Notes: a model not told the origin generated them from the letters alone. A stretch of DNA of 46,957 bases from an uncultured Candidatus Saccharibacteria bacterium (GCA_964527235.1 CAZGNC010000001.1:34263-81219), one strand, 5' to 3'. Positions 10,798 to 44,603 are shown, numbered from the stretch's first letter. Translations and numbers: made by a program.

Positions 10798-12612
10798 ATG
10801 AAAATTTCTTACAATTGGCTTAAATGGTATATACCGGATGCACCAGAGGCTGAGAAGCTCGCAGATATTTTCACTTATCATGTTGCAGAAGTAGAGAGCT
10901 TCGATAAGACCGCAAATGGGGATTATATTTTTGATATTAAAATTCTTCCAAACCGTGCGCACGATTTACTTTCTCATCAGGGCATTGCTCGTGAGGTGGC
11001 GTCTTTACTCGGCATTACTTACAACGACCCAACTCCTAAATATAAAATTCCCAAAATAGACCCAAAGACTAAAAAAACTGATTTACAAATAAAAGTTGAA
11101 AGCGATAAATGTCGTCGCTACATGGGACGCATCGTTCGCAATGTGAAAATTGGTCCTAGCCCAGACTGGGTAGTGGGTCATCTCGAGTCGATAGGTCAGC
11201 GCGGAATAAACAACGCCGTGGATGCTGCGAACCTTGTAATGTACGATTGTGGCCAGCCGATACACTGCTTTGACTTGGATAAAGTTTCTGGTGCGCTAAT
11301 CATCCGTCAAGCACGTGACGGTGAAGAAATGACTACACTCGATAATAAACTTGTGAAATTGCAAAGCACCGACCTTGTTATAGCTGATGAGAAAAACGTC
11401 TTGGCTATTGCCGGAGTTAAGGGTGGTAAAGTTGCTGAAGTAGATGCTAATACTAAAAATATAATTATCGAAGTGGCAAACTTCGACCCGACTTCAGTAA
11501 GGAAGACCGCTCAGCGAGCCGGGATATTTACTGACGCACGGAAAAGATTTGAGAATGATTTATCGCCTACACTTTGCGATTTTGCGATGCTTGAGACTTC
11601 AGGGTTGATGATTGAGTACGGTTTTACAGATTTTGAGGACGTTGTGGATGTATATACTGATCTGCCTAAAGAAGAAAAGCTTAAGTTTTCAGTTGATAAG
11701 ATTGCTAAAATCCTAGGTGAAGAAGTTTCTTCTAAGGACATTTCAGAAATTTTGACGAGATACAATATTTCTCATACAGAAGAAGGTGGAGAATTTGAAA
11801 TCACTGTGCCACCAATGCGTTTAGATTTGAGACTTGAAGAAGACATGGCTGAAGAGGTAGGCAGGATTTTGGGCTATGACAAAGTTAAACCTAAACTTCC
11901 AAAGATAAATTTCAAACCCAAAGTTAATGAAACCTTCGCTAAAATCTCATGGGCTCGAAATAAGTTATTTGAAGAAGGGTATTCTGAGGTGATGACTTAT
12001 GCATTTAGAGATACTGGCGAAGTAGAAGTACTTGCCAGTGCTTCAGATAAGAAATTTTTAAGAACGAATTTATCTGATGGGCTAGGGGAGTCTTTAAAAT
12101 TAAATCAATCAAATGCACCGCTGTTGGGATTAAAGGAAGTTAAAATATTTGAAATAGGAACGGTGTTTGGGAAAAACGGAGAGGAGATTCACGTAGCTTA
12201 TGGTGATAAGAAAAAAATTACAGAAGTGAATTTGGATGAATATGTTTCTTCAGCTTCGCTTGATGCTCCTGCTCAGGATCTCCTGCTACGCAACGTCGAC
12301 CGTTCGCAAAAGCATACAAGCGAAGCTTTTAGTATGTGGGCGTTATTTCCATTTATATCCCGTGATGTTGCACTTTGGGTGCCGGAGAATATAAAGAGCG
12401 AAGAAGTCGCAAAGGTAATAAAAGAACATGCAGGGGACTTGGTGGTACGAGGCCCGGAGCTATTTGATGAGTTCAAGAAAGCGGACAAGGTTTCCTATGC
12501 GTTTAGAATTGTTTTTCAGTCTAACGATCGTACTCTAACTGATGCTGAAATAAATGAAGTTATGGAGAAAGTTAATTCTGCCTTAGTAAGCTCTGGCTGG
12601 GAGGTTAGATAG
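10798..12612 (+). CDS. pheT: Phenylalanine-tRNA ligase beta subunit (shortened)
   Basis: MKISYNWLK, PNRAHDLLSH, B3/4 (GQPIHCFD, LAIAGVKGG), B5 (VPPMRLDL..EEVGRILGY), C-terminal FDX-ACB (RDVALWV..LTDAEIN). Confidence 0.95.
   Translation: MKISYNWLKWYIPDAPEAEKLADIFTYHVAEVESFDKTANGDYIFDIKILPNRAHDLLSHQGIAREVASLLGITYNDPTPKYKIPKIDPKTKKTDLQIKVESDKCRRYMGRIVRNVKIGPSPDWVVGHLESIGQRGINNAVDAANLVMYDCGQPIHCFDLDKVSGALIIRQARDGEEMTTLDNKLVKLQSTDLVIADEKNVLAIAGVKGGKVAEVDANTKNIIIEVANFDPTSVRKTAQRAGIFTDARKRFENDLSPTLCDFAMLETSGLMIEYGFTDFEDVVDVYTDLPKEEKLKFSVDKIAKILGEEVSSKDISEILTRYNISHTEEGGEFEITVPPMRLDLRLEEDMAEEVGRILGYDKVKPKLPKINFKPKVNETFAKISWARNKLFEEGYSEVMTYAFRDTGEVEVLASASDKKFLRTNLSDGLGESLKLNQSNAPLLGLKEVKIFEIGTVFGKNGEEIHVAYGDKKKITEVNLDEYVSSASLDAPAQDLLLRNVDRSQKHTSEAFSMWALFPFISRDVALWVPENIKSEEVAKVIKEHAGDLVVRGPELFDEFKKADKVSYAFRIVFQSNDRTLTDAEINEVMEKVNSALVSSGWEVR
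12252..12327. repeat. 76-bp palindromic element inside the pheT coding sequence
   Basis: Arms AGCTTCGCTTG (12252-62) and CAAGCGAAGCT (12317-27), plus ATGCT/AGCAT, enclose two small hairpins. Confidence 0.75.
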
Positions 12613-12627
12613 TTTTCCACAGGGGTC

Positions 12628-12827
12628 TTGTTTTTTATTCATAATTAAATATACTGATATTGTGAACGCACACGCATATATTAATAAGCAAGTTAAGGCA
12701 GCCAATCTCGTCTGCTTTATTTGCATTATTAATAAGCCTTAGAAGGCTGATGCTTGCGCTGTAAAAACTCTCTCGAACTTACAACCCAAACACCAGCCTT
12801 CTAGTAAAGAAGGCTTTGTTGTTCTTT
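12628..12827 (+). promoter_or_regulatory. Sigma70-like promoter and structured attenuator-like leader of the micro-ORF island
   Basis: TTGTTT-16-TATACT (12628-12655); long hairpin 12679-12734; mutually exclusive stems 12740-49/12794-803 versus 12795-802/12808-15 followed by a T-rich tract. Confidence 0.55.
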
Positions 12828-12882
12828 GGGTGTGAGCTGGTGAGCGTAAGCTCCTCACACCTGCGATGTTCCTGCCGGGAGG
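12828..12882 (+). ncRNA. Structured cis-RNA motif, copy 1 (Alu-domain-like topology, SD inside the 3' stem)
   Basis: GGTGTGAG/CTCACACC stem, CTGGT bulge, GAGC-GTAA-GCTC hairpin, TGCGA linker, TTCC-TGCCG-GGAG stem-loop. Near-identical copy at 13122. Confidence 0.7.
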
Positions 12883-12888
12883 AAGAGC

Positions 12889-13110
12889 ATGTCCGACCCA
12901 ACAAGGTTTTGCTCTAGGTGCAAGGAGGAGTACGATCCTAAGCTTGGCCACATCTGCCGGCTCTCTCACGTGCTTGAGCCTCGTCTTGAGGGCGAGACCA
13001 GATCGGATGCGGAGAGGCACGAGGCAGCGAGGTTGAGTCGCATCTCAGACGAGGTGAAGAGTGGTGGTATCAGAACCGGATGGGGTTTCAATGGGGTCGC
13101 AAACCCGTAG
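12889..13110 (+). CDS. Orphan 73-aa protein with a CxxC...HxC putative zinc site
   Basis: GGGAGG SD shortly before ATG; CSRC-x9-HIC. Confidence 0.6.
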   Translation: MSDPTRFCSRCKEEYDPKLGHICRLSHVLEPRLEGETRSDAERHEAARLSRISDEVKSGGIRTGWGFNGVANP

Positions 13111-13121
13111 TTCCTGTATCT

Positions 13122-13175
13122 GGGTATGAGCTGGTGAGCGCAAGCTCCTCATGCCTGTAGTTTTCTGCCGGGAGG
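13122..13175 (+). ncRNA. Structured cis-RNA motif, copy 2
   Basis: GGTATGAG/CTCATGCC stem (compensatory changes versus copy 1), CTGGT bulge, GAGC-GCAA-GCTC, TGTAG linker, TTTTC-TGCCG-GGAGG stem-loop. Confidence 0.7.
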
Positions 13176-13184
13176 GCTTTACTG

Positions 13185-13358
13185 ATGGAGATGTTTGGCA
13201 AGCAGTTTCGCGATGAAGACGAGGGGGCAAATGCAGTAGGCTTTAGCCGTGTAGTCGGCGACAAGAAGCCGACAACCCCGGAGACTGTGGCGAAGAAAGA
13301 AGAGCCCACGGACCCCAGGAAGCCGGCCTCACTCGGAGGCTGGTCGAAGTATCAGTAG
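13185..13358 (+). CDS. Orphan 57-aa charged, Pro-rich protein (MEMFGKQFRDEDEG...GGWSKYQ)
   Basis: Below the ORF-track cutoff; translated by hand. SD GGAGG 9 nt before ATG, the same position relative to the motif as ORF 12889. Confidence 0.55.
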   Translation: MEMFGKQFRDEDEGANAVGFSRVVGDKKPTTPETVAKKEEPTDPRKPASLGGWSKYQ

Positions 13359-13396
13359 GGTATTGCAACAAGCACCAAAGCGGTGCATCAAAGCGT

Positions 13397-13431
13397 GCGG
13401 GAGTGATCGATGATGATCACTCCCGCTTTTT
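13397..13431 (+). terminator. Intrinsic terminator ending the two-ORF unit
   Basis: Perfect 12-bp stem GCGGGAGTGATC/GATCACTCCCGC followed by TTTTT. Confidence 0.85.
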
Positions 13432-13534
13432 GTTTTGTTGCATTGCTCTGAAAAAGTAGTATATTTCTTAATTGTATTAGTACCTCTGTGTGTAACATAC
13501 CCACAGAGCACACTTGATCCATCGGAGGCACGAG

Positions 13535-13711
13535 ATGCACATCAGGTCAGAGATAACTGGGTATGACAAGGATGCTGTTCGCTCCTGGATGCATGCTCGC
13601 ACCAAGGACGTCTTGTATCCCCCCATTCGTTCAAAGAGGGCGATCATGGACGCCGTGAGTGCACGACTCGCGATTTACTTGGCTGAGGCCAGGGAGCCGT
13701 GGGAGCAGTAG
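13535..13711 (+). CDS. Orphan 58-aa protein (MHIRSEITGYDKDAV...REPWEQ)
   Basis: GGAGG 6 nt before ATG 13535; candidate promoter TTGCAT-16-TATATT (13438-65); followed by a terminator-like hairpin. Confidence 0.55.
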   Translation: MHIRSEITGYDKDAVRSWMHARTKDVLYPPIRSKRAIMDAVSARLAIYLAEAREPWEQ

Positions 13712-13716
13712 AACAA

Positions 13717-13756
13717 GGACCGGCACGCGATACGTGTGCCGGTCCGCAGTTTTTTA
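13717..13756 (+). terminator. Terminator-like hairpin between the island and gyrB
   Basis: 13-bp stem GGACCGGCACGCG/CGTGTGCCGGTCC (one G-U), then GCAGTTTTTT. Confidence 0.7.
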
Positions 13757-13768
13757 CCCCTAAAATAA

Positions 13769-16074
<2,306 letters not shown>

Positions 16075-18876: not shown

Positions 18877-19782
18877 ATGGCCAACAGGCACCTTTCAAGA
18901 TCAATAGTTCTTCAGACGCTTTTTGAATGGGATTTCAACGGCGCTAAATCTGACATTGATCTAAAAGAAGCAGTTCAAAGAAATATTAAAGAATTCGCGC
19001 CCGGGCTCGAAGATGATGCTTTCGTTTTTTCACTAGCAGAACAAGTTGAGAAAAAGCGTACAGTTCTAGATGAAATTATTAAAAAGGCGGCTCCTGATTG
19101 GCCTATTGAGAAGATTTCTGTAGTTGATCGCAACATATTGCGCATAGGGCTTGCTGAGCTTCTGTGGAGCGAGCGAAGTCAGGTGCCTCCGAAGGTGGCC
19201 ATCAATGAAGCTATTGAGCTTGCGAAGACTTTCGGCGGAGAAAATTCTGGCAAATTCGTTAACGGCGTGCTCGGCGCAGTTTACAAAGAAATGGGCGAGC
19301 CTGGCAAAGACGAAGTAAGCAAAAAGAAGAAAGATAAAGAACCTGTAGATATAACCAAGCTACCTATCGAGAAATTCGGTGGGGCGTTGGTGTATTCTCG
19401 CGATGGTGCGAATTTGTACTTTGCTTTTGTGCACGATGTTTTCGGATACTGGACTCTATCTAAAGGTCATATCGATAACGGCGAAGGCGAAGAAGAGGGT
19501 ACCATAAAGCGCATCAAAGAAGAGATAGGTATCGACATTGTTATTAAAGAAAAATTGGGGCAAAATAGCTACGTAGCTTCTCACCCTGAGAAAGGTAAGA
19601 CCTTAAAAAAGGTAGATTATTTCCTAGCAGAGAGTGACTACGTGCCATTACAGCTCGAGGTTTCTGGCGGGTTAGACAATGCGCGATGGTTCCCACTTGC
19701 AGAAATTCCAGAATTAAGAATTTATAATGATATTATTCCTCTCATTGCGAAAGCGGTTGAGATTATTTCTAAAAAACCCTAA
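18877..19782 (+). CDS. nusB: Transcription antitermination factor NusB fused to a C-terminal Nudix-fold domain
   Basis: RHLSRSIVLQTLF, VVDRNILRIG, VAINEAIELAKTFG..KFVNGVLG; then WTLSKGHIDNGEGEEEGTIKRIKEEIGI. Confidence 0.9.
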   Translation: MANRHLSRSIVLQTLFEWDFNGAKSDIDLKEAVQRNIKEFAPGLEDDAFVFSLAEQVEKKRTVLDEIIKKAAPDWPIEKISVVDRNILRIGLAELLWSERSQVPPKVAINEAIELAKTFGGENSGKFVNGVLGAVYKEMGEPGKDEVSKKKKDKEPVDITKLPIEKFGGALVYSRDGANLYFAFVHDVFGYWTLSKGHIDNGEGEEEGTIKRIKEEIGIDIVIKEKLGQNSYVASHPEKGKTLKKVDYFLAESDYVPLQLEVSGGLDNARWFPLAEIPELRIYNDIIPLIAKAVEIISKKP

Positions 19783-41342: not shown

Positions 41343-44300
41343 ATGCAAACAACACCAATGAATTTTAAAAATGGAGTTACGATCGCTGTTTTACTTTTAA
41401 TAATTTTCTTCTCAGTAGGGAAGATTAGTAAGCAAGTCCAGACCTTGGTAGGTTCTGGTAATAATTTAGCGCAGGTTACTACTGCGCCTACAGCCCCGAC
41501 AGGCTTAACTGCCGTACCTGGGGAATGTGGAGGCAAGGTAAATGCGTCCTGGAATGCTGTTTCAGGGGCAACATATTATGAACTAGTTCGATGGCCAGGC
41601 GGTGTAGCTCTTAGGTCTGAACGAACAACATATACAGATACTGCTCCTGCGGTTAGTACTAGGTATGAGTATCAAGTTCGTGCTGTTAACAGTGCTGGTT
41701 CTTCAGCTCTTCCTGCTAACAGTGTAGCTGTTGTTACTTCTGCGGCGTGTGTGGCCGGCCCAACCCCTACAGTCACTCTGTCGGCTTCTTCTGCATCAAT
41801 CACCTCTGGATCATCATCCACTCTAACCTGGTCTTCTACTAACGCAACATCATGTACAGCAAGTGGCGCATGGTCAGGTACACAGGCAACTTCAGGCACA
41901 CAAGCAGTTAGCCCAACCTCAACATCAACTTATACTTTGAGTTGTACCGGAGCAAGTGGAAGCGCTAGTGGATCTACCACAGTGTCTGTATCTGCTCCAA
42001 CAGCTTCTGCCCCAACTCTTTCTCTCTCTGCTTCACCAACATCAGTAACTTCTGGAGGATCCGCGACTATTTCTTGGAGTGCAACAAATGCTAGATCTTG
42101 TACTGCTTCTGGCGGGTGGAGTGGCACAAATGGCACTTCAGGTTCACAATCAGTAACTCCTTCTACAACCAAAACATACACATTAGACTGTACTGGTGAA
42201 GGCGGAACAGTTTCTAAGTCTGTAACAGTTACAGTTACTACTCCTACGACTACAACACCTAAATTTCAAACAGGGGATTATGTAAAGACTACTGCTGGAG
42301 TAAATGTACGATCTACAGCTGGCGGTTCTATCGCTGGTAAACAGTCTACTGGTGTTGCGGGCACTGTGATTAGTGGCCCTGGTCAGTCTACAAAGAGCGC
42401 TGACCCATATTGGAACGTTGATTTTGCTACTGGAACTGATGGATGGGTTTTGGAAAATTACCTTACCAAGACAGCAACAGCTCCAGCCCCAGTTCCTCCA
42501 GCCACCCCAGCTCCAACGCTTACTCTTTCTGCTTCTCCTGCAACTCTAACTTCAGGTTCTTCTTCTACACTAACTTGGTCTTCAACTAACGCAACTGGCT
42601 GTACTGCAACCGGTGGCTGGTCTGGTGCTAAAGTTACTGGCAGTTCAGAAGCCGTAACTCCATCTGTTACAACAACTTATACTCTAGGTTGTACTGGAGC
42701 GGGTGGCTCTGTTAGTAAATCTGTGACAGTCACGGTTAGCACTCCAGCTCCTTCTACCACATACAAAGTAGGTGACTCTGTGGCTACTACAACTTCTGTA
42801 AATGTTCGCGATTCAGCAAACGGACTTTTGCTTGGTACAAAGAACTCAGGTGATGTCGGTGTTGTCCTTAGTGGAGGTACATATGCTGGTGGTTATCATT
42901 GGTGGAATGTGGACTATCTAAATGCACCAGACGGATGGACTGCAGAAAGTTTCCTTACTACATATACTCCACCTTCAACTCCACCTACAGTTTCTATTTC
43001 TGCTTCCCCATCTTCAATCACCAAAGGCTCTTCTGCAACATTAACTTGGTCTTCCACTAATGCAACGTCATGTACTGGAAGTGGTGCATGGTCTGGAGCT
43101 CAAGCAGTAAGTGGCACTAAGACAGTTTCTCCAACGGTGAATGCTACATACACACTTGCATGTACAGGAACTGGAGGGACTACAACACAGTCTGTAACAG
43201 TAACTGTTAATGCTGTGATTACTCCTCCACCCGCACCAAGTAATGGTGTCTCTTTAACTCCTACTAAATTATTGCCTGCATATGGTCCATTGGTAGCAAG
43301 TTCCTCTTCTACAATCCCTGAGCTGAAGAAGCTTGAGTCAAATTTCTTGAAGTATGAACAAAAGCATTATACTGATTACACAGCTCTAACTGGCGTGCCT
43401 TCAGTTTCTTATAACCACTACGGATTTTTAGGTAGTAGATTGGCATACTCAATTAAAAATGGTTTACCTTACGGCTCAGGCGTCACTGATCCTACCAAGG
43501 ATATGTATGCAAGAGGACGTGAAGTTGCTATAGACTGGCTAGTTGACTACTCAGCTGCGAACAACTATGGAGTTGCGCAGTGGTGGGACACTTCGCTGGA
43601 AGATATGGAAGCCATGGTTGTACTCGAAAATAACCCTACTGCCCGAACTCACATACACATGGATGCAGCCAGAGGTACTGGCAACAGTACTTACATGAAG
43701 ATGCAAGCATCTGCTGCGGACCCACGTGGTATAACTATATTCCTACAGCCTATGCTGATTGCTCATCGTCTAGGAATTCCTTTCGCACATCCTGGAAACG
43801 GTTACTCCGCATATTTCGATTCTACGCTTGGTAGTTGGGCAAACGCAGCAAAAAGAAATATATACTGGCTTGATCAATACAACGTAATTCAATCAGATGG
43901 TACTATCATAAGTAAGGCACACGGAGGAGCAGAGGCGTTCTTCATGAATGCTATGCTAGTCGATCAACTGCTGGGATACTATGCATATATAGAAAGAGAC
44001 CCTGTCGTGTTTAACATGGCTCAGAGAGTTGTTGATCATTGGATTAATTTCTTACCTGCTGGCTGGAACACTCTGCCTTACCAGAGTAAGACCACCTCTA
44101 CCGGCTCTGGAACATCTCAAGCTCCAGACTTAGCAAACTTCTATGTATACCCAAGTTTGGTAATGTGGCAGGAGACAGGACAACAGAAGTACTACGATTT
44201 CGCTGTTAAGAACTTAGTATCCGCTGGTACTGCGTATATCTCAGGACACAAGCAATTCAATCAGATATACAATACTGACGTGTTTGCTGCGGATGCACTG

Positions 44301-44603
44301 ATTAATGGTGTATCTTGGAAGCCAGCTAAACCTCTTTTCCCACCAGCAAATCAAACAACTCTTGCTTTTGTACCTTCCACTGCTCCTGCGGGACAGTCTG
44401 CTACCATTACAAATGGACAGTCTCTAGATCTTACTTGGTCTACAATAAATGCTACTTCTTGTACAGCAAGTGGTGCATGGACTGGGTCTAAGGGAACTTC
44501 TGGAATACTAAGTATTACCCCTACAGTTACAAGCACTTATACCCTAAGTTGTTCTGGAACATATGGTACAACGACACAGTCTGTAAAAGTTACAGTTAAA
44601 TAG
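41343..44603 (+). CDS. Large secreted modular surface protein: FN3-like domain, 5 Ig-like repeats, 2 SH3b-like domains, helical putative catalytic domain
   Basis: N-terminal hydrophobic helix; repeats LSAS..ITSGSSSTLTWSSTNATSCTASGAWSG..YTLSCTG; two VNVR..G.V..G..WNVD..DGW segments; aromatic-rich helical region of about 370 aa. Confidence 0.8.
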   Translation: MQTTPMNFKNGVTIAVLLLIIFFSVGKISKQVQTLVGSGNNLAQVTTAPTAPTGLTAVPGECGGKVNASWNAVSGATYYELVRWPGGVALRSERTTYTDTAPAVSTRYEYQVRAVNSAGSSALPANSVAVVTSAACVAGPTPTVTLSASSASITSGSSSTLTWSSTNATSCTASGAWSGTQATSGTQAVSPTSTSTYTLSCTGASGSASGSTTVSVSAPTASAPTLSLSASPTSVTSGGSATISWSATNARSCTASGGWSGTNGTSGSQSVTPSTTKTYTLDCTGEGGTVSKSVTVTVTTPTTTTPKFQTGDYVKTTAGVNVRSTAGGSIAGKQSTGVAGTVISGPGQSTKSADPYWNVDFATGTDGWVLENYLTKTATAPAPVPPATPAPTLTLSASPATLTSGSSSTLTWSSTNATGCTATGGWSGAKVTGSSEAVTPSVTTTYTLGCTGAGGSVSKSVTVTVSTPAPSTTYKVGDSVATTTSVNVRDSANGLLLGTKNSGDVGVVLSGGTYAGGYHWWNVDYLNAPDGWTAESFLTTYTPPSTPPTVSISASPSSITKGSSATLTWSSTNATSCTGSGAWSGAQAVSGTKTVSPTVNATYTLACTGTGGTTTQSVTVTVNAVITPPPAPSNGVSLTPTKLLPAYGPLVASSSSTIPELKKLESNFLKYEQKHYTDYTALTGVPSVSYNHYGFLGSRLAYSIKNGLPYGSGVTDPTKDMYARGREVAIDWLVDYSAANNYGVAQWWDTSLEDMEAMVVLENNPTARTHIHMDAARGTGNSTYMKMQASAADPRGITIFLQPMLIAHRLGIPFAHPGNGYSAYFDSTLGSWANAAKRNIYWLDQYNVIQSDGTIISKAHGGAEAFFMNAMLVDQLLGYYAYIERDPVVFNMAQRVVDHWINFLPAGWNTLPYQSKTTSTGSGTSQAPDLANFYVYPSLVMWQETGQQKYYDFAVKNLVSAGTAYISGHKQFNQIYNTDVFAADALINGVSWKPAKPLFPPANQTTLAFVPSTAPAGQSATITNGQSLDLTWSTINATSCTASGAWTGSKGTSGILSITPTVTSTYTLSCSGTYGTTTQSVKVTVK

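Follow-up and report, generated by a model that had tools for sequence, protein, structure and literature searches.

We find that a small hairpin, present in two copies between pheT and gyrB and directly 5' of two short ORFs, is real as + strand RNA and under selection. The window, by which we mean the whole 46,957-nt stretch of DNA analysed here, holds the 54- to 55-nt motif at 12828-12882 and at 13122-13175, both on the + strand. Judged by sequence comparison, the motif is an RNA element without an Rfam 15 match; its general kind, that of a cis-acting leader structure, is known, and its distribution is limited to one genus-level clade. Its role is a more tentative matter: an influence on how the two ORFs are translated, or on how stable their mRNA is, seems probable. 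The reading we lean towards, and rate a little short of an even chance, is that of a lineage-specific cis-acting translational operator or stabiliser module of a micro-ORF operon, in which the hairpin would be the platform for a trans-acting factor.

The island between pheT (10798-12612) and gyrB (13802/13820-15877) is 1.2 kb long and has ~55% G+C, compared with ~40% around it. Its features are as follows.

12650-12655, + strand: -10-like box TATACT, with TTGTTT 16 nt upstream (12628-12633), read from the sequence
12662-12827, + strand: AT-rich leader RNA with a long hairpin, 12740-12764/12779-12803 (inverted repeats I1 and I4)
12828-12882, + strand: motif copy 1; P1 12829-12836/12854-12861, bulge CUGGU 12837-12841, P2 12842-12845/12850-12853, GUAA loop 12846-12849, linker 12862-12868, P3 12869-12872/12878-12881 with loop UGCCG, GGGAGG 12877-12882
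12889-13110, + strand: ORF1, a 73-aa orphan with a CxxC...HxC motif
13122-13175, + strand: motif copy 2; P1 13123-13130/13148-13155, bulge 13131-13135, P2 13136-13139/13144-13147, GCAA loop 13140-13143, linker UGUAG, P3 13162-13165/13171-13174, GGGAGG 13170-13175
13185-13358, + strand: ORF2, a 57-aa orphan whose N-terminus is conserved and whose body is replaced in relatives
13397-13436, + strand: intrinsic terminator closing the ORF1-ORF2 unit, 13 pairs followed by TTTTTGTTTT
13535-13711, + strand: ORF3, 58 aa, with a coding signature of 8/6/22 by codon position, its own GGAGG, a terminator at 13717-13745 and no P1-P2 motif

The repeat finder reports that the two copies, spaced 294 nt apart, share 89% identity over 37 nt plus 93% over 14 nt. 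Their 24-nt core, GAGCTGGTGAGCGYAAGCTCCTCA, is found at 12834 and 13128 (+ strand) and nowhere else in the window, compared with 0.01 occurrences expected from shuffles, and TTYCTGCCGGGAGG is present at 12869 and 13162. The P1-P2 hairpin comprises a P1 of 8-9 bp, a 5-nt bulge on the 5' side, a 4-bp P2, and a GNRA tetraloop, with a predicted energy of -16 to -19 kcal/mol; P1-P2 is part of the minimum-free-energy (MFE) structure that RNAfold predicts for every copy, and in both window copies that structure includes the 5-nt bulge and the tetraloop. It lies 5-7 nt upstream of a short hairpin, P3, whose 3' arm is the purine box GGGAGG, itself 6-9 nt 5' of the start codon. From the end of GGAGG to the ATG, the gap is 6 nt for ORF1 (ATG 12889) and 9 nt for ORF2 (ATG 13185). 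A preliminary description of this DNA had placed two copies 6-9 nt before different small ORFs, with intercopy differences that keep pairing, and both statements are borne out: from copy 1 to copy 2, a G-C pair of P1 becomes A-U, a U-A pair becomes U·G, and the tetraloop changes from GUAA to GCAA. There is no intrinsic terminator at the motif itself, as the terminator scan lists 12795, 13397, and 13717, and P1 is followed by UGCGAUG or UGUAG.

Relatives of the island were found by two protein routes. Homologues of ORF1 led to loci L045, L046, and L047/L048, while homologues of pheT led to L060 (of the same type as L045), L061/L062, L063, L065, and L066, and the source names on the latter point to a placement in Paceibacteria/Parcubacteria. 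Four further contigs (L049-L052), which come from independent assemblies, are identical to the window, and the island is therefore not a chimera. The resulting motif set consists of 7 distinct copies from ~5 closely related metagenomic genomes, five copies beyond the window's two, and has low statistical power. All carriers have at least 85% pheT identity and form one small, genus-level clade; at 73%, 71%, and 69% pheT identity the P1-P2 motif is absent, the island and its leader being kept there with other small ORFs. A covariance-model search of the kind proposed in the preliminary description (model R1, run on 109 kb comprising the window and related loci) returned no further copies and placed those known only before start codons, and every copy lies 6-9 nt before one, in agreement with the suggested link to downstream initiation.

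In the alignment of the 7 copies (A2), P1 has 8 pairs, with 100% of the cells paired. Three of these pairs carry compensatory changes (G-C/A-U, C-G/U-A, and A-U/G-C), and there are three single G·U wobbles, which correspond to A-C mismatches on the minus strand. The changes in P1 fit three double events and three single transitions by way of G·U, none of which breaks pairing. P2 is invariant, and the tetraloop is GUAA, GCAA, or GAGA, which is always GNRA. The covariation score is matched in just 1 of 500 shuffles, and slid controls give ~50% pairing.

Conservation points the same way. Between copy 1 of the window and copy 1 of L045, 38 of 55 positions are unchanged, including GAG-CUGGU-GAGCG, AGCUCCUCA, UUCCU, and CCGGGAGG, and the 13 differences are confined to the flank, the linker, the P3 loop, the tetraloop, and distal P1, where they are compensated. 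At neutral sites, the window lineage and the L060/L061 lineages have diverged by 38-50% (4-fold positions) and by 47% (third positions of ORF1), and at a per-site divergence of 0.45 the chance of 38 unchanged positions is 0.55^38, or ~1e-10. Hardly any change is seen in the bulge, P2, inner P1, and CCGGGAGG despite a neutral divergence of 40-50%. Because pairing is kept and the sequence is conserved against this divergence, the motif is a true RNA element under selection, with constraint on the sequence of its bulge, P2, and inner P1 in addition to that on pairing. A pattern of the operator type is present: distal P1 covaries, and the bulge, P2, and inner P1, beside the initiation site, are invariant or nearly so. 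These data support the earlier proposal of a structured, covarying + strand RNA placed in cis directly 5' of two small ORFs. The further statement that the unpaired parts are invariant holds within the window, where the bulge CUGGU and the loop UGCCG are the same in both copies, and fails in relatives, where the loop is UACCG in the first copies of L045 and L046 and the bulge is CUUGU in the second copy of L061.

A central idea of the preliminary description was that P3 buries the Shine-Dalgarno (SD) sequence, and this we find overstated. P3 has predicted energies of -1.9 to -3.0 kcal/mol in six copies and +0.8 kcal/mol in window copy 2, in the register first described. With 30 nt of coding sequence added, it is lost from most MFE structures, and GGGAGG then has an unpaired probability of 0.2-0.5, its partners shifting. 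As P3 is marginal and not robust, occlusion of the SD by the RNA alone is therefore weak, and the calculated energies are compatible with easy melting but also with no P3 at all. P3 bears a likeness to fourU/ROSE thermometers, in that it pairs UUCC (UUUUC in copy 2) with GGAG(G) in a weak, G·U-rich helix; in contrast to those, it is barely stable at 37 C, there is no Rfam match, and the conserved P1-P2 has no counterpart there. The suggested kissing pseudoknot between bulge UGGU and loop GCCG likewise does not find support, with one compatible change (loop UACCG, U·G to U-A) set against one disruptive change (bulge CUUGU in L061, L062, and L064, three separate contigs).

How the GGGAGG box is used depends on how translation starts in this lineage. 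Among 27 housekeeping gene starts of the window (e.g., 4865, 13820, and 46700 on the - strand), 25 lack GGAG, GAGG, or AGGA at -20 to -4, while a TANNNT box ends 5-16 nt before the ATG in 14 of the 27, many of them 7-9 nt before it, compared with ~22% by chance. Initiation that is leaderless or independent of an SD therefore appears to be usual in the window. The small ORFs of the island are the exception, having GGGAGG or GGGGAGG boxes that are usually the 3' arm of a small hairpin. Boxes of the GGGGAGG type in the 3' arm of a small hairpin are also found at nonhomologous ORFs of L061, L063, L065, and L066, there without P1-P2. According to a survey, about half of Parcubacteria are without the 16S anti-SD motif (PMC9297842). 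Because 25 of 27 window genes are SD-less and some Parcubacteria lack the anti-SD, it is uncertain that GGGAGG acts as a classical Shine-Dalgarno site, and it may not act through 16S pairing at all.

The -10-like box reads TATACT or TATAAT in all six lineages of alignment A4 and is not listed by the consensus scanner; we infer that it is the -10 box of an island promoter. No promoter-like box was found directly upstream of either motif copy, and a strong terminator follows ORF2, which together point to a single putative transcription unit of leader, copy 1, ORF1, copy 2, ORF2, and terminator. The stem of that terminator covaries in L060, and a conserved CAUCAAAGCGUGCGGG box (13385-13400) lies 5' of it. 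In the leader, the long hairpin, formed in the MFE structure (-49.9 kcal/mol), competes with a terminator-like hairpin at 12795-12815 whose U-tract ends directly at copy 1.

The leader core is nearly invariant down to 69% pheT identity, being conserved more widely than the motif, and the leader RNA may be a riboregulator in its own right. The core reads AGAAGGCUGAU..UUGC..UGUAA...ACUUACAA.CCA.ACACCAGCYUUCU and has no Rfam match. The leader lies at 12662-12827 in the window, ~370-565 in L045, ~5870-6010 in L061, ~5850-6010 in L063, 3800-3960 in L065, and 2320-2490 in L066.

The preliminary description held the small ORFs to be orphans, which is borne out, and ORF1 is nevertheless a real gene. 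Its substitutions relative to L045 number 6/5/25 by codon position, where pheT has 9/6/39, and on this pattern ORF1 is clearly coding. Searches found P0002-P0004 as its sole homologues; the family has 4 clusters among 5.8 G proteins, with 2 representatives among 1.84 G, and is essentially confined to the clade. A weak match to zf-Tbcl_FmdE (E=1.1e-3) is below the curated cut-off, and the AF2 model, with a pLDDT of 53.6, is unusable. The coding signal of ORF2 is weaker (13/11/23 for L045 versus L061), and its family search returned just the 3 members already known. Pfam, PHROG, NCBIfam, and PADLOC offer no credible family for any of the small ORFs, and no relatives of the island ORFs were found in viral contigs, phage records, or plasmids.

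The intergenic region (12613-13801) is a hotspot of GC-rich orphan micro-ORFs (50-95 aa) that can be swapped, and the same slot holds different ORFs in different lineages (the window versus L045/L060, L046, L047, L061, L063, L065, and L066). L061 has an unrelated 66-aa ORF in place of ORF1 and copy 1; in L046/L047, it is the C-terminus of ORF1, copy 2, and ORF2 that are replaced. The breakpoints map to the interior of the leader hairpin, to a point ~20 nt 5' of copy 2, to about codon 53 of ORF1, and to the CAUCAAAGCG box, with none at the motif. A box reading GCACCAAAGCGGUGCAUCAAAGCGUGCGGG, with CAAAGCG twice, at 13372-13400 runs into the terminator after the cassette ORFs and marks the 3' breakpoint of cassette replacement; it is also present before terminators in L045, L046, L047, L061, and L063. 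Several micro-ORFs (ORF1, 12889-13110; ORF2, 13185-13358; L061 6102-6302; and the ORF1 variants of L046/L047) end in Gly-Gly plus a short, variable C-terminal peptide, namely SGG/IRTGWGFNGVANP, LGG/WSKYQ, KGG/WWCNGI, and DGG/HFVRRAGL. These C-termini are reminiscent of double-glycine leader peptides; a C39 peptidase or ABC exporter was not found in the window.

What, then, might the hairpin do? We prefer the operator reading because a covarying outer stem, combined with a fixed bulge, P2, and loop type, is the pattern of protein-bound bulged hairpins. Well-known examples are the MS2/PP7 coat-protein operators, HIV TAR with Tat, and lambda boxB with N, and in boxB, loops of the GNRA type are peptide-binding sites. 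As in these systems, the bulge and loop of the motif are constrained in sequence, the outer stem needs pairing only, and the element sits at or beside the initiation region that would be regulated; the upper stem GAGC/GCUC with its 5' bulge has a TAR-like layout. In contrast to them, the motif shares no sequence homology, its binder is a candidate only, and the start codon and SD lie outside the hairpin, not within it. The hairpin would be the recognition platform for a trans-acting factor, and occupancy by this factor would set access to the adjacent initiation region. The most economical choice of factor would be the CxxC/HxC micro-protein ORF1, encoded right behind copy 1, which could in this way coregulate ORF1 and ORF2. 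The hairpin would probably also protect the mRNA 5' of each cistron; this is of consequence here because host genes are SD-less and often leaderless, whereas the internal GC-rich cistrons would need a dedicated initiation site. The mutated bulge CUUGU occurs only in L061/L062/L064, the one lineage whose island lacks ORF1, and this concurrence of bulge mutation and ORF1 loss, in a single lineage (n = 1), is suggestive of a link between ORF1 and the operator.

We consider it somewhat unlikely that the motif is instead a passive structural element, a 5' or intercistronic stem-loop that shields the mRNA from ribonucleases or keeps the initiation region insulated from the GC-rich coding sequence, with no trans factor and no switching. 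The hairpin is indeed very stable, ORF3 too has a hairpin (13484-13508) followed by GGAGG, and RNase III and RNase R are encoded in the window. All stem pairs of a passive element should covary, yet P2, inner P1, and the bulge are almost fixed at 40-50% neutral divergence. Gram-positive mRNAs carry 5' stabiliser stem-loops and STAB-SD elements, which, like the motif, combine a stable stem-loop with a strong SD-like box close to the 5' side of a cistron; no particular bulge or loop sequence is required there, whereas here these positions are the most conserved. A more far-reaching and distinctly unlikely idea is that the hairpin and GGGAGG form a dedicated, regulated initiation channel for accessory micro-proteins in a Parcubacteria lineage with SD-less or leaderless housekeeping genes, acting as a switch or as an SD-independent recruiter of ribosomes. 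The element would then be a new compact ligand- or protein-responsive switch (a bulge-RCCGG pseudoknot with GNRA docking) or a structure for SD-independent recruitment; the 16S rRNA might even lack an anti-SD, and translation of the micro-proteins would be restricted to a certain state of the ribosome or the cell. That the motif is a small-molecule riboswitch, in which a ligand would stabilise a pseudoknot of bulge CUGGU with RCCGG (the P3 loop and the edge of the SD) and so close the initiation site, strikes us as improbable. In the 5-bp register, CUGGU:GCCGG is calculated at -4.7 kcal/mol and still pairs (-4.4 kcal/mol) when the loop G becomes A, and the architecture is like that of small SD-occluding pseudoknot riboswitches. 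With NAD+-II/pnuC and preQ1 riboswitches, the motif shares a size of ~55 nt, the order of stem, internal bulge, and second stem, and a possible pairing of an unpaired segment with the SD region. However, it matches no such model or any other in Rfam, and the bulge change from G to U in L061/L062/L064, which is tolerated, abolishes the duplex (+1.2 kcal/mol), so that the pseudoknot is lost in one lineage. The genes downstream encode orphan micro-proteins with no metabolic or transport link, and the motif is confined to one narrow, genus-level clade, which is not the conservation of an aptamer across diverse taxa.

Two further alternatives look beyond the hairpin as a binding platform. The motif could be the target of the upstream leader RNA, the invariant CACCAGC of the leader pairing with GCUGGUG (the bulge and its flanks) in cis at copy 1 and in trans at copy 2. 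This we regard as quite improbable: the 7-bp complement is perfect (-11.1 kcal/mol), and lineages without the motif pair the same CACCAGC locally with ...GCUGGUG, but the duplex is no better than those with shuffled targets (fractions of shuffles at or below the observed value, 0.42 and 0.12), and CACCAGC is buried in the leader's own long hairpin. A DNA-level element, either a REP- or IS200/IS605-like hairpin or a recombination site at which micro-ORF cassettes are swapped, would suit the mosaic island (ORF1 with copy 1 in L061; the ORF1 C-terminus, copy 2, and ORF2 in L046/L047), and single-stranded DNA hairpins likewise tolerate G·T pairs. We nonetheless hold it to be very improbable, given that the replacement breakpoints lie away from the motif, that just two copies occur in 47 kb, both 6-9 nt before start codons and with none elsewhere in related loci, and that transposases and integrases are absent among the window ORFs scanned.

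Almost no credence remains for a free-standing fold like the SRP Alu domain, the topology that the preliminary description had put forward. Like the SRP RNA Alu 5' domain, the motif has two hairpins and a short linker, and copy 2 contains the strings UGCCUGUAGU and CGGGAGG, which human 7SL RNA presumably contains as well. In contrast to that domain, it matches no SRP covariance model. The models for Metazoa, Bacteria_large, Archaea, and the other SRP families of Rfam 15 gave no match at the gathering threshold in the whole window and none at E<=10 in 12500-13900 (1.4 kb) or 12815-13195 (381 nt). The linker is variable, with UGUNR in 3 of 7 copies (UGUAG, in ORF2-type copies only) and UGCGAUG, UACAUG, UGUAUG, or UGUGUG in the others. 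Loop-loop pairs of the Alu type are not seen, the terminal loop of the first hairpin being a GNRA tetraloop instead of a pairing loop. A closing helix 2, a helix 5, and an S domain are all absent; on its 5' side the motif borders on a terminator U-tract or the stop region of ORF1, and on its 3' side on the start of an ORF, which places the element in an mRNA leader at start codons. Membership in the SRP Alu family is refuted on these four counts.

That no Rfam family has this layout, as the preliminary description had stated, is confirmed by scans that included the SRP families. The whole window yields two tRNAs only, and permissive scans of the region give nothing credible, the best overlap being Transposase-2 RNA at 13.4 bits (cut-off, 42.7; E=3.5). 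The core pattern has 43 matches in genome contigs, all chance-like and without P1, and 7 in metagenome contigs, all chance-like; both collections are evidently without this organism. Viral contigs gave 1 chance match to the core pattern and at least 120 to a looser, P2-free pattern, and none among the matches listed pairs both P1 and P2. One hairpin, ACAAG-AGCUGGUGAGCGAAAGCUC-CUUGU, is common to one viral and three metagenome contigs, where it lies after a TACAAT box and before an ATG (L001 12950-12968, - strand; L054 1167-1187, - strand; L056 1094-1114, - strand; L057 6701-6721, + strand). It shares the motif's 21-nt core, differs in the outer stem, and has no CCGGGAGG, and the resemblance is probably due to chance.

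To our knowledge, almost no cis-regulatory RNAs have been experimentally characterised in Patescibacteria. Were the operator reading true, the island would provide a compact and easily testable case of post-transcriptional control in this group, in which a conserved platform of regulation, set between two core genes, would serve to express a fast-evolving class of micro-proteins. The motif alone concerns ~five closely related metagenomic genomes and has no bearing on SRP biology. Around the motif, the SD-less host genes, the conserved leader RNA, and the swappable cassettes merit at least as much interest, and the contrast between SD-less housekeeping genes and "SD"-led island ORFs offers a handle on the partitioning of initiation in reduced genomes.

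Three other observations concern the window. The segment 13640-13819, which spans the 3' end of ORF3, its terminator, and the gyrB promoter, is ~98% identical to L060 6860-7048, while 4-fold sites differ by 40-50%; this identity indicates strong constraint or recent recombination. A 1086-aa ORF (41343-44603) has no Pfam domain at E<=1e-5. Lastly, a single ORF at 18877-19782 carries a NusB domain and, C-terminal to it, a NUDIX hydrolase domain, an unusual combination.
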